DNA from: Paracoccus suum
Lineage (GTDB): Bacteria; Pseudomonadota; Alphaproteobacteria; Rhodobacterales; Rhodobacteraceae
Direction: 5' to 3'
Length of the DNA: 32,000 nt
NCBI RefSeq assembly: GCF_003324675.1
Contig: NZ_CP030918.1
Coordinates: 120,001-152,000, forward strand
Under the pieces are notes generated by a model. That model was not told the DNA's origin, searched no databases, and saw nothing but the letters and a program-made list of their open reading frames with translations. Of this stretch, positions 4,524-9,991 are shown piece after piece. Both the position numbers and the translations under genes were made by a program. Within the stretch, counting starts at the first letter, position 1. Every line of letters begins with the position of its first letter.

Positions 4524-5327
4524 CTACCGCCCGGCATTGCCGGCATAGAGCGCCACCGCAGCCGCATTCGAGACGTTGAGCGAGCCAAAAGCCCCGGGGT
4601 GATCGATCCGCGCAAGGTGATCGCAGACCGCGCGCGTTCCCTCACGCAAGCCCGGTCCCTCGGCGCCAAGGACCAGGCAAACCGCAGCGCCGGCGGGCCC
4701 CGAGGCCAGCACCTCGGCCAGCGTCGGCTCGGCCGCACCGTCGAGGCCGATCACAGTGAATCCCATGTTCTGCATCTCGCGCAGGGCATCGTTGAGGTTC
4801 GGCACGCGCAGGTAGGGCTGTCGCTCCAGCGCGCCCGAGGCGGTCTTGGCCAATGCCCCAGTCTCGGGCGCGGCATGACGCGCAGGGGCGATGACGGCCC
4901 GCGCGCCGAACACCTCGGCCGAGCGCAGGATGGCACCAACGTTATGCGGGTCAGTTACCCGGTCGAGGGCGACAACCAGCGGTCGCGCGCCTGCCGGCCC
5001 CTCGCGCAAACAGACCTCGCTGAGGCTGCCCCAGCGCAGCGGCCGCACCTCCAGCGCGGCGCCCTGGTGGACGCTGTCGGGCGCCAGCGGCACGGTCTTG
5101 TCGAACACCCTCGGGTCGATGATCTCTGGCGTCATCGCCAGCTCGCCCAGCCGGTCGGCGGCATTTCGGGTCAGCACGAGGCGCAGTTTCTCGCGCGCCG
5201 GGTTCGTCAGCGCATCGCGCACGGCGTGCAGTCCGAACAGCCAGATCGTCTCGGCCGCCGAGGCGCGGCGTGCGCGTTCCTTGTCGATCACCCAGGTGGG
5301 CTTTTTCGCCTTCTTGCCTTCGCTCAT
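4524..5327 (-). CDS. rlmB: TrmH/SpoU-family RNA 2'-O-methyltransferase, RlmB-like (23S rRNA Gm2251)
   Basis: MSEGKKAKKPTWVIDKER... followed by the substrate-binding region LFGLHAVRDAL. The C-terminal SpoU methylase region contains DRVTDPHNVGAILRSAE, LVLGAEGPGL and SLNVSNAAAVALY. Start moved to M48 of the track ORF (CAT at 5325-5327). Confidence 0.8.
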   Translation of the reverse strand: MSEGKKAKKPTWVIDKERARRASAAETIWLFGLHAVRDALTNPAREKLRLVLTRNAADRLGELAMTPEIIDPRVFDKTVPLAPDSVHQGAALEVRPLRWGSLSEVCLREGPAGARPLVVALDRVTDPHNVGAILRSAEVFGARAVIAPARHAAPETGALAKTASGALERQPYLRVPNLNDALREMQNMGFTVIGLDGAAEPTLAEVLASGPAGAAVCLVLGAEGPGLREGTRAVCDHLARIDHPGAFGSLNVSNAAAVALYAGNAGR

Positions 5328-5468
5328 CGCAGTTCCGCCCTGCCTTCCGCCGGATATCCCACCCGTCCGCCGCCGCACCGCGCGGCAGACCGTCATCACC
5401 CCGATTGCCCGCTTGACGCCCCCGACGCCAGCCCTTAATCCCGCGCTGTGCCGCAGCAATGCGGGCAC

Positions 5469-5857: not shown

Positions 5858-8800
5858 TCAGCGGCCGAGCGCCGTCAGCGCCTCGTCGCAGCGGGCGCAG
5901 ACACCAGGGTGCGCGTGGCTGCCGACGTCGGGCAGGATCTGCCAGCAACGCTGGCATTTCTGCCCTTCAGCCAGGGCGAAGATCACCCCTACGCCCAGGA
6001 CGTCAGCCAGTAGGAATGCGCCCTCCGGTGCCGGGGCCGGCGTCAGGGTCAGGTCCGAGGTGATGCACATGTCGGCGAAATCGACGTTCTCCAGCACCGC
6101 GAACATGTCCGGATCCTCGACATGGACGACGGGCGCCGCCTCGAGGCTGGCGCCGATGGTCTTGTCGCTGCGTTTGACCTCCAGCGCGGCGGTGACCACG
6201 CGGCGGGCGCGGCGCACCATGTCCCAGCGGGCGGCGAGGGCATCGTTGCGCCAATCAGCCGGCGTCGGCGGGAAGTCGTGCAGATGCACGCTGTCGGTGT
6301 CCGAAGGCCAGCGCGACAGCCACACATCCTCGGCCGTGAAGGGCAGGATCGGCGCCAGCCACAGCGTCAGGCGGCGGAAGACCGCGTCGAGGACGGTACG
6401 GACGGCCCGACGCCGCAGGCTGCCGGGCGCGTCGCAATAGAGCGCATCCTTGCGGATATCGAACCAGAAGGCCGACAGATCGCTGGTCGCAAAGTTGAAC
6501 AGCGACTGGAATACGCCCTGGAAGTCGTAGGCTTCGAAGCCCTGGCTGACCTCGGCATCCAGTTGCGCGAGGCGGTGCAGGACCCAACGCTCAAGCTCGG
6601 GCATCTGTGCGGGCTCGACCCGCTCGGCCTCGTCGAAGTCAGCCAGCGCGCCCAGCAAGAAGCGCAGCGTGTTGCGCAGGCGGCGATAGCTGTCGGCGGT
6701 GCCCTTGAGGATCTCGGGCCCGATCCGCTGGTCAGCGGTGTAGTCGGCCTGCGCGACCCAGAGGCGCAGGATATCGGCGCCGTATTGCTCGATCACCTTG
6801 GCAGGAACGATGGTGTTGCCGAGCGATTTGGACATCTTCATGCCCTTCTCGTCCAGCGTGAAGCCATGCGTCAGCACCCCGCGATAGGGCGCGCGGCCCT
6901 GCGTCGCACAGGCCTGCAGCAACGAGGATTGGAACCAGCCGCGATGCTGGTCCGTGCCCTCGAGATAGAGGTCGGCGATCCCGTCAGGCGCGCCGTCCGC
7001 GCGGTCGCGCAGCACGAAAGCGTGGGTGGAGCCGCTGTCGAACCACACGTCCAGCACGTCCATGACCTGGTCCCATTCGGCCGGGTCATGGAGGCCTTCC
7101 AGCATCCGATCCTTGAAACCCTCGGTGTACCAGACGTCGGCGCCGTGGATCGCGAAGGCCTCGCGGATGCGGGCGTTCACCGCCTCGTCGCGCAGTAGGA
7201 AGTTGGGCGCATCCGGGCGTGCGTTGGCGCGGGTAAAGCAGGTCAGCGGCACGCCCCAGGCCCGTTGGCGTGAAAGCACCCAGTCGGGCCGATTCTCGAC
7301 CATGCTGTGGATGCGGTTGCGCCCCGTGCGGGGGGTCCATTTGACCAGCTCGTCGATCGACGCCAGCGCACGCGCGCGGATTGTTTGGCCATATTCGCCC
7401 ATGCCATCGTCCAGCGGCTTGTCGATGGCGGCGAACCACTGCGGCGTGTTTCGAAAGATGACCGGGGCCTTGGACCGCCAGCTGTGCGGATAACTGTGCT
7501 TCACTTTGCCCTTGGCCAGCAGCGCCCCTTGCCCCGCCAGCGCCTTGATGTTGCTGACGTTGGCAGGACCTTCCTTGCCCTCGGGCGTCAGGATGGCTTG
7601 ACCGCCAAAGACCGGCAGGTCCCCGCGGTAGCTGCCGTCGGGCCCGACGTTATGCGTCATCGGCAGGCCATGGCGCAGGCCCATCTGATAGTCGTCCTCG
7701 CCGTGGCTGGGGGCGGTGTGGACAAAGCCCGTGCCGGCGTCCTCAGTGACATGATCCCCGGGAAGGAGAGGGACAGGGAAGTCCCACTCCCTGCTACCTC
7801 CATCAAGTCCGCGGTAGGGATGAGAAAGTAAAATATTGCTTAGAAGATCACCCTTGAACGCCTCACCAATCTCATAGCGTTCAATTTTGGCTGCTCGAGC
7901 AATATCTTCAATCTGAGAGGACGCAACGAGAAGTTGTTCGCCAACTTTGGCGGTGCTCCCTTCAGTAACTGCATTCACGCGCAAAACTGCATAATCAATT
8001 TCAGGATTGTAAGCGACCGCACGGTTCTGCGGGATAGTCCAGGGTGTAGTTGTCCAGATCACCACCGACACGTTATTCCGCACCAGCGCGTCCTGCAGGT
8101 TCATCCGATCATCAACAATGGGCACGCCAGGCGAACTCCGCGAGACCAATGGAGCCAAAACTCGAGCAGCCTCAATCACAGGAAATCTCACCCACACCTG
8201 ATGACTGGTATGATCGTGATACTCGACCTCGGCCTCGGCCAGCGCGGTCTTCTCGACGGGCGACCACATGACCGGCTTGCTGCCCTGATAAAGGCTGCCG
8301 TTCATCACCAGCTTCATGAACTCGGCCGCGATGACTGACTCGGCGTGGAAGTTCATGGTCAGGTAGGGATCGGCCCAGTTGCCAATGACGCCTAGCCGCT
8401 CGAACTCCGCCCGCTGGGTGTCCACCCAACCGGCGGCGAAGGCGCGGCATTCCTGGCGGAACTCGATCATGTCGACCGCGTCCTTGTCCTGACCGCGGGC
8501 GCGATACTGCTCCTCGATCTTCCATTCGATCGGCAGGCCGTGGCAGTCCCAACCGGGGACATAGCGCGCATCGCGGCCCATCATCTGCTGGCTGCGGGTT
8601 ACGATGTCCTTGAGGACCTTGTTCAGCGCGTGGCCGATGTGCAGGTGGCCGTTGGCGTAGGGCGGGCCGTCATGCAGGATGAACGGCCGGCGCCCCGCCG
8701 CATTGGCGCGCAACTGGTCGTAGATGCGGAGACGCGCCCAGCGGGCCAGCCATTCGGGCTCGCGCTGCGGCAGGCCGGCGCGCATGGGAAATTCGGTTTC

Positions 8801-8884
8801 AGGCAGAAAGACGGTGTCGCGATAGTCGGCGGCATCGGCATTGTCAGATTGGACCGCGGGCGGGGCGGACGTGTCGGCGCACAT
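5858..8884 (-). CDS. ileS: isoleucine--tRNA ligase
   Basis: 1008 aa. HIGH motif (PYANGHLHIGHALN), KMSKS motif (KMSKSLGN), CP1 editing motif WTTTPWT, and a C-terminal Zn-finger-like CQRCW...CARC. Confidence 0.97.
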   Translation of the reverse strand: MCADTSAPPAVQSDNADAADYRDTVFLPETEFPMRAGLPQREPEWLARWARLRIYDQLRANAAGRRPFILHDGPPYANGHLHIGHALNKVLKDIVTRSQQMMGRDARYVPGWDCHGLPIEWKIEEQYRARGQDKDAVDMIEFRQECRAFAAGWVDTQRAEFERLGVIGNWADPYLTMNFHAESVIAAEFMKLVMNGSLYQGSKPVMWSPVEKTALAEAEVEYHDHTSHQVWVRFPVIEAARVLAPLVSRSSPGVPIVDDRMNLQDALVRNNVSVVIWTTTPWTIPQNRAVAYNPEIDYAVLRVNAVTEGSTAKVGEQLLVASSQIEDIARAAKIERYEIGEAFKGDLLSNILLSHPYRGLDGGSREWDFPVPLLPGDHVTEDAGTGFVHTAPSHGEDDYQMGLRHGLPMTHNVGPDGSYRGDLPVFGGQAILTPEGKEGPANVSNIKALAGQGALLAKGKVKHSYPHSWRSKAPVIFRNTPQWFAAIDKPLDDGMGEYGQTIRARALASIDELVKWTPRTGRNRIHSMVENRPDWVLSRQRAWGVPLTCFTRANARPDAPNFLLRDEAVNARIREAFAIHGADVWYTEGFKDRMLEGLHDPAEWDQVMDVLDVWFDSGSTHAFVLRDRADGAPDGIADLYLEGTDQHRGWFQSSLLQACATQGRAPYRGVLTHGFTLDEKGMKMSKSLGNTIVPAKVIEQYGADILRLWVAQADYTADQRIGPEILKGTADSYRRLRNTLRFLLGALADFDEAERVEPAQMPELERWVLHRLAQLDAEVSQGFEAYDFQGVFQSLFNFATSDLSAFWFDIRKDALYCDAPGSLRRRAVRTVLDAVFRRLTLWLAPILPFTAEDVWLSRWPSDTDSVHLHDFPPTPADWRNDALAARWDMVRRARRVVTAALEVKRSDKTIGASLEAAPVVHVEDPDMFAVLENVDFADMCITSDLTLTPAPAPEGAFLLADVLGVGVIFALAEGQKCQRCWQILPDVGSHAHPGVCARCDEALTALGR

Positions 8885-9082
8885 CGAGGCTATCCTTGCA
8901 GGCGTTCAGGGTTGGGCAAGCGGCAACGACCCGGCAGCGCGGCCCGCAAGGGCTCAGGCCGCCGGGCGGATAATTCGATGTATCGCGCCCGTCATCAGCA
9001 TGCGGTGGTTATAGGCAGCGCGGATTGCCGCCACAAGACGCGGGGACGAGGGGCACTGCCTGGGCCGCGCCTTTGCGCGGTG

Positions 9083-9604
9083 TCAGTTGGCCGGCTTCGC
9101 GTCGGCCGTGGCGGGGGCGCCATGGTGATGGCCCGCGGCCGGCGCCATGTCGTGACCGGCATGGGACATGGGCGCACCCGAGGCGCGCTCGTTGTCGACC
9201 GGGACATCGGCCGGGACCTGACCGCAGGGGCCGAAGTCGAGTGTCAGGGCGACAGTCTCGCCCGCCTTCAGCGGCTTTTCGAGGCCCATCAGCATGACGT
9301 GATTGCCGCCACGCTCCAGCTTCAGATCGCCGCCGGCTGGAACGGTCAGGCTCTCGACCTTGACCATCTTCATCACGCCGCCCTCTTCCTTGTGGCCGTG
9401 CAGCTCGGTCCGCTCGGCGACCGTGCTTTGCGCGCCCTGCAAGGTGCAGTCCGCGGCGCCGGGGTTGTGGATGGTCATGAAGGCGGCGCCCGCGTGGGCA
9501 TTGGCGCTGCGCGCATAGGCGTCGGCCACGGTCGGCGCGGGCTCGGCCGCGGCGGCGATCAGGGGCAGGCAGGCGGCGGCGAGGGTCAGTGCAGTCGTTT
9601 TCAT
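9083..9604 (-). CDS. periplasmic copper chaperone PCu(A)C (DUF461) with His/Met-rich C-terminal tail
   Basis: Signal peptide MKTTALTLAAACLPLIAAAA. Has H(M)X10MX21HXM-type ligand spacing (HGHKEEGGVMKM ... GGNHVMLMG). The tail MSHAGHDMAPAAGHHHG is His/Met-rich. Confidence 0.85.
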   Translation of the reverse strand: MKTTALTLAAACLPLIAAAAEPAPTVADAYARSANAHAGAAFMTIHNPGAADCTLQGAQSTVAERTELHGHKEEGGVMKMVKVESLTVPAGGDLKLERGGNHVMLMGLEKPLKAGETVALTLDFGPCGQVPADVPVDNERASGAPMSHAGHDMAPAAGHHHGAPATADAKPAN

Positions 9605-9640
9605 GTCGGTGTGTCCTGTGTGCGTTGCTTTCGGTTCGGG

Positions 9641-9991
9641 TCAGGCGGGCACTACAGGCGGGGCGCGGGCCCGCGGCGGCATCGGCGCGGGCAAGACGAG
9701 GTGAAGGGCGGCCTGCTGCGCTGCCAGGAGGCGTGCAGTCGGGGTCGGCCCGACGAACTGAACCGGCGGCGCGCCGATCGCGGCCATCAGCCCCAGCGCC
9801 ATGTCGGGACAGATTTCTGCATGTCCTGAGACCGGCCCCCCGTCCGGGCCAGGCAGGACCGCAACGCGCAAAGCCTCGCCCGAGCACAGGATGACCGTGC
9901 CACCCGCCAGCACCCGCCCCCGCGCATGCCCCAAGGCGATGCCGGTCAGCAAGGTCACGATCAAGAGGGCGAGGCTGGCGGCGTTGCGCAT
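9641..9991 (-). CDS. hypothetical small membrane-anchored protein with Cys/His/Met motif, upstream of PCu(A)C
   Basis: 116-aa ORF with a strong G/C bias at third codon positions in this frame and an N-terminal hydrophobic segment ASLALLIVTLLTGIALG. Contains ILCSGE ... GHAEICPDM. It ends 36 nt before the PCu(A)C start. No convincing SD and no family recognised. Confidence 0.5.
   Translation of the reverse strand: MRNAASLALLIVTLLTGIALGHARGRVLAGGTVILCSGEALRVAVLPGPDGGPVSGHAEICPDMALGLMAAIGAPPVQFVGPTPTARLLAAQQAALHLVLPAPMPPRARAPPVVPA

Follow-up and report, generated by a model that had tools for sequence, protein, structure and literature searches.

What brings a short AT-rich stretch into an essential gene of a GC-rich bacterium? 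The question is raised by ileS, the isoleucyl-tRNA synthetase (IleRS) gene of Paracoccus suum, which lies in the 32,000-nucleotide stretch analyzed here (contig NZ_CP030918.1, positions 120,001 to 152,000 of the forward strand; hereafter the window). A first-pass annotation had reported a low-GC tract of about 480 nt at codons 222-380 of this gene and had attributed it to homologous recombination with a lower-GC donor. The tract was borne out in our study, and both the mosaic structure and the exchange behind it were well supported, whereas the lower-GC donor was not supported. The tract is probably a rare, long-loop, AT-rich allele of a hypervariable ileS segment that is exchanged by homologous recombination within the Paracoccaceae, and its AT-richness needs no low-GC donor. 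The gene and the parts of it that bear on this reading are listed below by window position, with codons numbered along the minus strand and with G+C at third codon positions given as GC3.

5858..8884, minus strand: ileS, type 1 isoleucyl-tRNA synthetase (open reading frame (ORF) and translation; Pfam tRNA-synt_1, Anticodon_1 and zf-FPG_IleRS; best solved relatives 8c9e and 1ffy)
7745..8221, minus strand: low-GC3 tract, codons 222-380, the swapped segment and front part of the CP1 editing domain (GC3 change-point fit, drop in third-position identity, site-pattern switch to the P0002 allele)
8075..8179, minus strand: variable long loop at about codons 236-270, of which about 25 residues are absent from short-loop alleles and from solved IleRS1 (alignments; AlphaFold (AF2) pLDDT, predicted local distance difference test, of 60-75 with one short helix)
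8036..8056, minus strand: WTTTPWT, the Thr-rich editing motif, at residues 277-283 within the tract and followed by N287 (motif positions)
7775..8014, minus strand: codons 291-370, the hypervariable core of the tract, with a GC3 of about 0.39

The profile of GC3 across ileS reproduced the drop. In sliding windows, GC3 was 0.8-0.93 along the gene except at codons ~215-375, where it fell to 0.33-0.47; over codons 251-290, which hold the conserved Thr-rich block, it climbed partly back to 0.7-0.8. The boundaries were obtained using a maximum-likelihood two-breakpoint fit on third-position G+C, with 200 codon shuffles as the null. The fit returned codons 222-380, the start having a support interval of 219-224 and the end one of 363-383, and a 2*dlnL (twice the log-likelihood gain) of 101 against a null maximum of 22.9, in agreement with the sharp boundaries described before. 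Within its 477 bases the tract had a GC3 of 0.48, compared with 0.86 in the remainder of ileS, and G+C at first positions (GC1) was lowered too (0.62 vs 0.67-0.68). The switch to A/T-ending codons that the annotation had pointed out was confirmed, such codons making up 52% of the tract and 14% elsewhere in ileS. The G+C content was 51.8% over 7745-8225, 70.8% in the flank at 7621-7740 and 62.5% in the flank at 8221-8340, both flanks being above 60% as claimed, and the earlier hand count of 141 G+C in 290 nt over 7791-8080 was exact (48.6%). The tract spans from just past EAEVEYHDH to just ahead of GTGFVH and encodes roughly the first 60% of the CP1 proofreading domain, the Thr-rich motif included. 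Its core shared at most 55% amino-acid identity with any of 253 homologues and was confidently folded by AF2 as an IleRS editing domain.

A mobile insertion (insertion sequence, intein or intron) was ruled out as the origin of the tract, which aligned residue for residue with other IleRS CP1 domains and had no boundary repeats.

Across the 3.25-Mb genome, 80-codon windows had a mean GC3 of 0.841 (sd 0.063), and 0.15% of them were under 0.5. Ten other low-GC3 windows, chosen among those not at the start of their ORF, were checked. Eight of the ten lay in the upstream non-coding part of stop-to-stop ORFs; the other two were assigned neither as coding nor as non-coding, one being in L046, which had no Pfam match, and one in L051, where the window follows a Band 7 domain. 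The ileS tract was the only clear intragenic GC3 dip found in the long genes of the genome. Among loci L042 (G000:C1:1094089-1096851) and L043-L051, several stop-to-stop ORFs, including recQ, murJ, radical-SAM and aldehyde dehydrogenase genes, showed a GC3 of 0.28-0.45 just upstream of the first recognised domain, and these AT-rich stretches are probably intergenic or leader regions.

When tract and flanks were searched separately, the best-hit taxa differed. Flank residues 381-1008 matched Paracoccus proteins only, at 77-83% identity, and in the flank tree the query was nested in Paracoccus beside P0121 (Paracoccus sp. S-4012) and P0122, with a Shimodaira–Hasegawa-like approximate likelihood ratio (SH-aLRT) support of 96. 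Both of these sister-group genes carry other versions of the tract. For tract residues 222-380, the best hits were P0002 from a Rhodobacter capsulatus strain (62%), P0003 (59%) and P0004 from a Rhodobacteraceae metagenome-assembled genome (MAG) (58%), followed by P0005 (54%) and then a mixed crowd at ~50%. The nearest tract relatives were one R. capsulatus strain and two metagenome contigs. In the alignment, the query, P0002, P0003 and P0004 shared the extra loop of ~25 residues and the motifs FKGDLLxN and (D/N)FPVP. Compared with P0121, the flanks were 0.78-0.94 identical in nucleotides and the tract just 0.33-0.51, and third-position identity fell from ~0.6-0.83 to 0.11-0.48, with 0.44-0.48 over the conserved Thr-rich block. 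No donor, and no sequence above 62% identity to the tract, was found in 5.8 billion proteins (near-full length and fragments), 1.84 billion cluster representatives, or genome, metagenome and viral contigs; the viral contigs gave no hit at all.

The conflict was also seen in a triplet site-pattern test on the query, P0121 and P0002, in which informative sites in the flanks and in the tract were compared by a Fisher test. The query sided with P0121 over P0002 at 291 of the 433 informative sites in the flanks and with P0002 at 78 of the 128 in the tract (p = 1.8e-8). The switch held at codon positions 1+2 (p = 6e-7), and the best segment was residues 238-403, where 2dlnL was 45.5 and the null did not exceed 21.3. 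With P0067, the second R. capsulatus allele, the switch was weak (p = 0.04). The tract protein tree grouped the query with P0002, P0003 and P0057 (SH-aLRT 89), but an approximately unbiased (AU) test did not reject its flank clade. The differing best hits, the fall in identity and the site-pattern switch indicated that the tract has a history different from that of the rest of the gene, and that ileS is a recombination mosaic, as had been suggested.

Exchange of this segment was found throughout the family. Among 254 proteins, 89 tract classes were distinguished at 75% identity, and more than one class was present in 13 of 30 flank groups (groups at >=93% amino-acid identity). Moreover, 75 of 610 pairs with >=95% identical flanks fell below 60% identity in the core, and many tract classes were found within genera and within near-identical backgrounds. 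For the R. capsulatus-like genes P0002, P0067 and P0057, the flanks were mostly 0.83-1.0 identical in nucleotides, compared with just 0.26-0.6 over residues ~228-365, in all three pairs. At L034:3001-5997, L040:1501-4449 and L041:1501-4449, R. capsulatus-like ileS genes had near-identical flanks and three unrelated CP1 front segments, all three lowered in GC3 (0.56-0.72 vs 0.84-0.85). The opposite arrangement was found in L072/L074 and L065/L069, where an AT-rich tract was 0.93-1.0 identical and the flanks were 0.78-0.98 identical, with edges near 225 and 365. These tracts are recent swaps between GC-rich hosts.

Two conserved blocks border the exchanged segment.

8207..8272, minus strand: upstream conserved anchor, codons 205-226 (...ALAEAEVEYHDH), a likely crossover zone (conservation and exact runs)
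7685..7774, minus strand: conserved anchor on the downstream side, codons 371-400, which includes GTGFVHTAPSHGEDDY (384-399) and in it the editing His and Asp, a likely crossover zone (conservation, motif positions)

Codons 205-224 ranked fifth among the most conserved 20-codon windows of ileS, with a mean nucleotide identity of 0.899 in 30 family genes. In the upstream anchor, exact runs of 16-36 nt were shared by the query with eight relatives, and runs of 23-26 nt with P0002, P0003 and P0004, which belong to other genera. The downstream anchor had a nucleotide identity of 0.82-0.87 across the family and exact runs of 11-20 nt. These features suggest that crossovers in the conserved anchor blocks are the mechanism of exchange. 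A segment present in dozens of very different versions would be passed between Paracoccaceae species by homologous recombination, with crossovers falling on either side at codons ~205-226 and 371-400.

Three other genes with unusual tracts or labels were met in the survey. L016 (G011:C23), from the genus Paracoccus, had a longer AT-rich tract covering ileS codons ~226-458 in query numbering (230 codons; GC3 0.42 vs 0.86), with an insertion of its own near HPWHNQTWAKFKG and very little similarity to any other tract. L124 (CP059262.1), titled as the chromosome of an Exiguobacterium profundum MAG, carried a Paracoccaceae-type ileS with a matched anchor pattern, 45% identical to the tract, and this record is probably a mislabelled or mixed assembly. 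P0166, named Stutzerimonas stutzeri, was 79% identical to the Paracoccus flank and is probably mislabelled or mixed likewise.

The AT-richness of the segment was surveyed in 183 unique ileS genes with DNA, gathered by similarity to the query, in which dGC3 was the GC3 of the tract compared with that of its own flanks. In 37 ileS genes examined for significant low-GC3 segments, every such segment mapped to the same site as the query tract. The dGC3 was below -0.10 in 76 of the 183 genes and below -0.20 in 47, and it was above +0.10 in none. In the 178 GC-rich genes, dGC3 was correlated negatively with loop length (rho -0.67) and with the excess divergence of the tract from the kin nearest in the flanks (rho -0.68), and positively with how many species share the allele class (rho +0.56). 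Furthermore, a dip was present in 75% of the alleles without sharing by other species, compared with 5% of those common to >=10 species. At equal flank divergence, AT-rich tracts were more divergent among themselves (median 0.51 vs 0.64). The few uniformly lower-GC3 genes had short loops and no dip and were not donor-like, and a uniformly low-GC gene with the long-loop version was not found among the 183.

The dip was regional and not site-wise. Flank GC3 was independent of residue conservation (0.84-0.88), and tract GC3 was low even at invariant residues (0.60); on this evidence, relaxed constraint and translational accuracy were both rejected as explanations. Since eight of ten same-class pairs of AT-rich tracts were more diverged at four-fold sites than their flanks, such tracts evidently remain AT-rich for long periods in GC-rich hosts. 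Long loops were not always AT-rich. The long-loop alleles L002, L005 and L013 had no dip; L002 (G016), from the closest relative in GTDB, has its own 44-residue loop insertion at the same ileS site, with GC-rich codons.

The AT-richness is more plausibly a feature of the allele class than the fingerprint of a donor genome, because no donor was found, AT-rich versions occur in many GC-rich Paracoccaceae, GC-rich hosts exchange them, and no uniformly low-GC gene among the 183 has the long loop. As for its cause, we offer the tentative idea, possible rather than probable, that rare versions escape GC-biased gene conversion. GC-biased gene conversion is itself the hypothesis of Lassalle et al. 2015 (PMC4450053). 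A version without a similar partner would form no heteroduplex inside the tract; the rare tract would then miss GC-biased gene conversion and drift to an AT-biased mutational equilibrium (GC3 ~0.4-0.5), while the flanks a few codons away would stay at a GC3 of 0.85-0.9. The GC3 of 0.7-0.8 at codons 251-290 fits this idea, because the conserved block there could pair with other alleles.

Several points weigh against exchange within the family as the source of the tract and against rarity as the source of its composition. The AU test on the 145-column tract protein alignment failed to reject the query with its own flank clade (p = 0.336). The nearest tract relatives are just 54-62% identical, so neither a donor nor a date can be named, and it is conceivable that the allele is of long standing and that its relatives have been replaced. 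The survey was biased toward the query and genera differed strongly (dips in 9 of 10 Tabrizicola vs 4 of 32 Paracoccus), so its correlations are descriptive and partly a matter of lineage. In 29 relatives gathered without this bias, the relation of loop length to dGC3 was not significant (rho -0.26, p = 0.18); four strong dips alone stood out there, all in long-loop genes. Finally, the gene-conversion part is something that we only infer.

Among the other explanations, the proposal made earlier deserves the most attention. In the form considered here, the tract was recently imported by homologous recombination from a bacterium of lower G+C throughout, and the donor codon usage has not yet been ameliorated. 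The sharp boundaries agree with this, and the GC3 of 0.39-0.49 together with the lowered GC1 fits long residence in an AT-richer setting. In addition, GC1 lay below its expectation for GC3 in L016, L027 and P0067 when codon positions were compared (GC1 and GC2 vs GC3), which could signal ongoing amelioration, although the baseline was too thin to separate import from in-place decay. We nevertheless consider such an import rather unlikely. Its donor is missing from every collection searched, and AT-rich tracts are swapped between GC-rich hosts. None of the 183 genes was uniformly low in GC3 with a long-loop allele, and AT-rich tracts of the same class occur in lineages whose flanks are just 0.54-0.67 identical at four-fold sites. 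Recombination depends on exact runs in the anchor blocks, and few of these would be expected with a low-GC donor.

Divergence in place, by locally faster AT-biased mutation or by relaxed constraint on this part of the editing domain, would require no transfer at all. It is compatible with the AU test and with the segment being intrinsically the least conserved part of ileS, but it seems improbable, as the query tract had a specific affinity to P0002, P0003 and P0004 in the site-pattern test, at positions 1+2 too, and shared its loop and motifs across genera. Near-identical R. capsulatus-like backgrounds with unrelated tracts also speak against it. Relaxed constraint at single sites is not the cause, because variable flank residues were GC-rich and invariant tract residues were AT-enriched. 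Still less probable is selection for the AT-rich codons themselves, whether for slow translation that aids the folding of a long-loop CP1 or for an embedded DNA or RNA element. The dips do accompany long loops and recur at one site; however, several long-loop alleles lack a dip, and the tract sequences were not conserved between alleles. The search for an embedded element in the tract gave no Rfam match at E up to 1, no promoter-like site and no boundary repeats, and antisense ORFs had no family match. An assembly chimera or contamination is hardly credible, since the genome forms one contig of 3.25 Mb, the reading frame runs through the tract with every motif preserved, and the same kind of tract was present in many independent assemblies, isolates included. 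Exchange of a rare AT-rich allele within the Paracoccaceae is the preferred reading.

The enzyme encoded by the mosaic gene appears complete. The gene is a 1008-codon ORF (5858-8884, minus strand) encoding a 1008-residue IleRS, and it is the single ileS of the genome. The following signatures lie outside the tract.

8630..8641, minus strand: HIGH signature of the synthetic site, residues 82-85 (motif positions)
6824..6838, minus strand: KMSKS signature, residues 683-687 (motif positions)
5885..5965, minus strand: zinc finger at the C-terminus (residues 974-1000), a typical feature of bacterial type 1 IleRS (PF06827)

The class I signatures were present as HLHIGH at 80-85 and KMSKS at 683-687 (PF00133, E = 1e-120), and the zinc-binding domain PF06827 was matched at residues 974-1000. 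The location of HIGH and KMSKS agrees with the earlier statement that the tract lies outside the synthetic site. The frame was open and read as IleRS CP1 as described, with the editing motifs WTTTPWT at 277-283, N287 and GTGFVHTAPSHGEDDY at 384-399; WTTTPWT was invariant in 53 homologues. The AF2 model of residues 195-420 had a pLDDT of 83.5 and matched the IleRS editing domains 1ue0, 1wny and 1udz at probability 1.0, and only the loop at ~236-258 was of lower confidence. The match to IleRS1 8c9e was 753 bits (4e-225), compared with 283-286 bits (4e-84 to 5e-83) for IleRS2 8c9d and 8c8u. Judged by its sequence, the protein is a bacterial type 1 IleRS, nearer IleRS1 than IleRS2. The enzyme should work normally, because its catalytic and editing signatures are all intact.

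Directly downstream of ileS is a SpoU-family methylase gene (window 4524-5468, minus strand). The same arrangement was found in the two nearest Paracoccus relatives (L038 and L039), which argues that the neighbourhood is native. Upstream of ileS, window 8540-9887 holds overlapping ORFs on both strands, at 8540-9829 (plus) and 9009-9887 (minus), without a Pfam match.

Thus, within an essential, slowly evolving enzyme lies a short and highly polymorphic segment that acts as a cassette exchanged freely throughout a family, and the codon composition of this cassette tracks the rarity of the version. Low-GC patches need not indicate a low-GC donor, and where ileS is used as a phylogenetic marker the front part of CP1 should be masked. 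In addition, the locus offers a clean internal control for the debate on what keeps bacterial genomes GC-rich. If the gene-conversion idea is true, recombination-linked conversion, and not selection on codons or G+C, would hold third positions GC-rich in these alphaproteobacteria, and it would give a general reason for the AT-richness of rare or accessory DNA.

Mosaic penicillin-binding protein genes of Streptococcus and Neisseria are a familiar case of interspecies homologous recombination in housekeeping or target genes. Like them, ileS has a sharp-edged foreign block in a native essential gene, with crossovers in conserved stretches. Unlike them, the ileS tract avoids the synthetic site and is not tied to a drug target site, its donor species cannot be identified, and the same block was replaced repeatedly across a family. 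Horizontal transfer affecting IleRS is also a feature of type 2 IleRS and mupA-type mupirocin resistance (PDB 8c8u, 8c8v). However, the query is a type 1 enzyme with a zinc finger at its C-terminus, and what was transferred is not the mupirocin site; the ileS of P. suum is intact and not a resistance variant.

The closest parallel is with the homeoalleles of aminoacyl-tRNA synthetases, which are divergent forms of the same function that occur in a higher taxon with one per genome (Andam and Gogarten 2011, PMC3191353), as in the case of leucyl-tRNA synthetase in Halobacteriales (PMC3436685). The ileS tract is a sub-genic "homeoallele", and the rest of the gene is ordinary Paracoccus. No paper describing sub-genic homeoallele exchange for ileS was found in the literature search. 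As with homeoalleles, tract versions of the same function are found side by side in a higher taxon while each genome has a single one, replacement occurs via recombination in conserved flanks in the same gene neighbourhood, and the distribution conflicts with organismal kinship. By contrast, rare classes are AT-rich in GC-rich hosts here, which is not described in the homeoallele literature surveyed. Furthermore, the exchanged unit is ~0.45 kb inside the gene (codons ~222-380) and not the whole gene, and it exists in dozens of classes in place of two ancient types.

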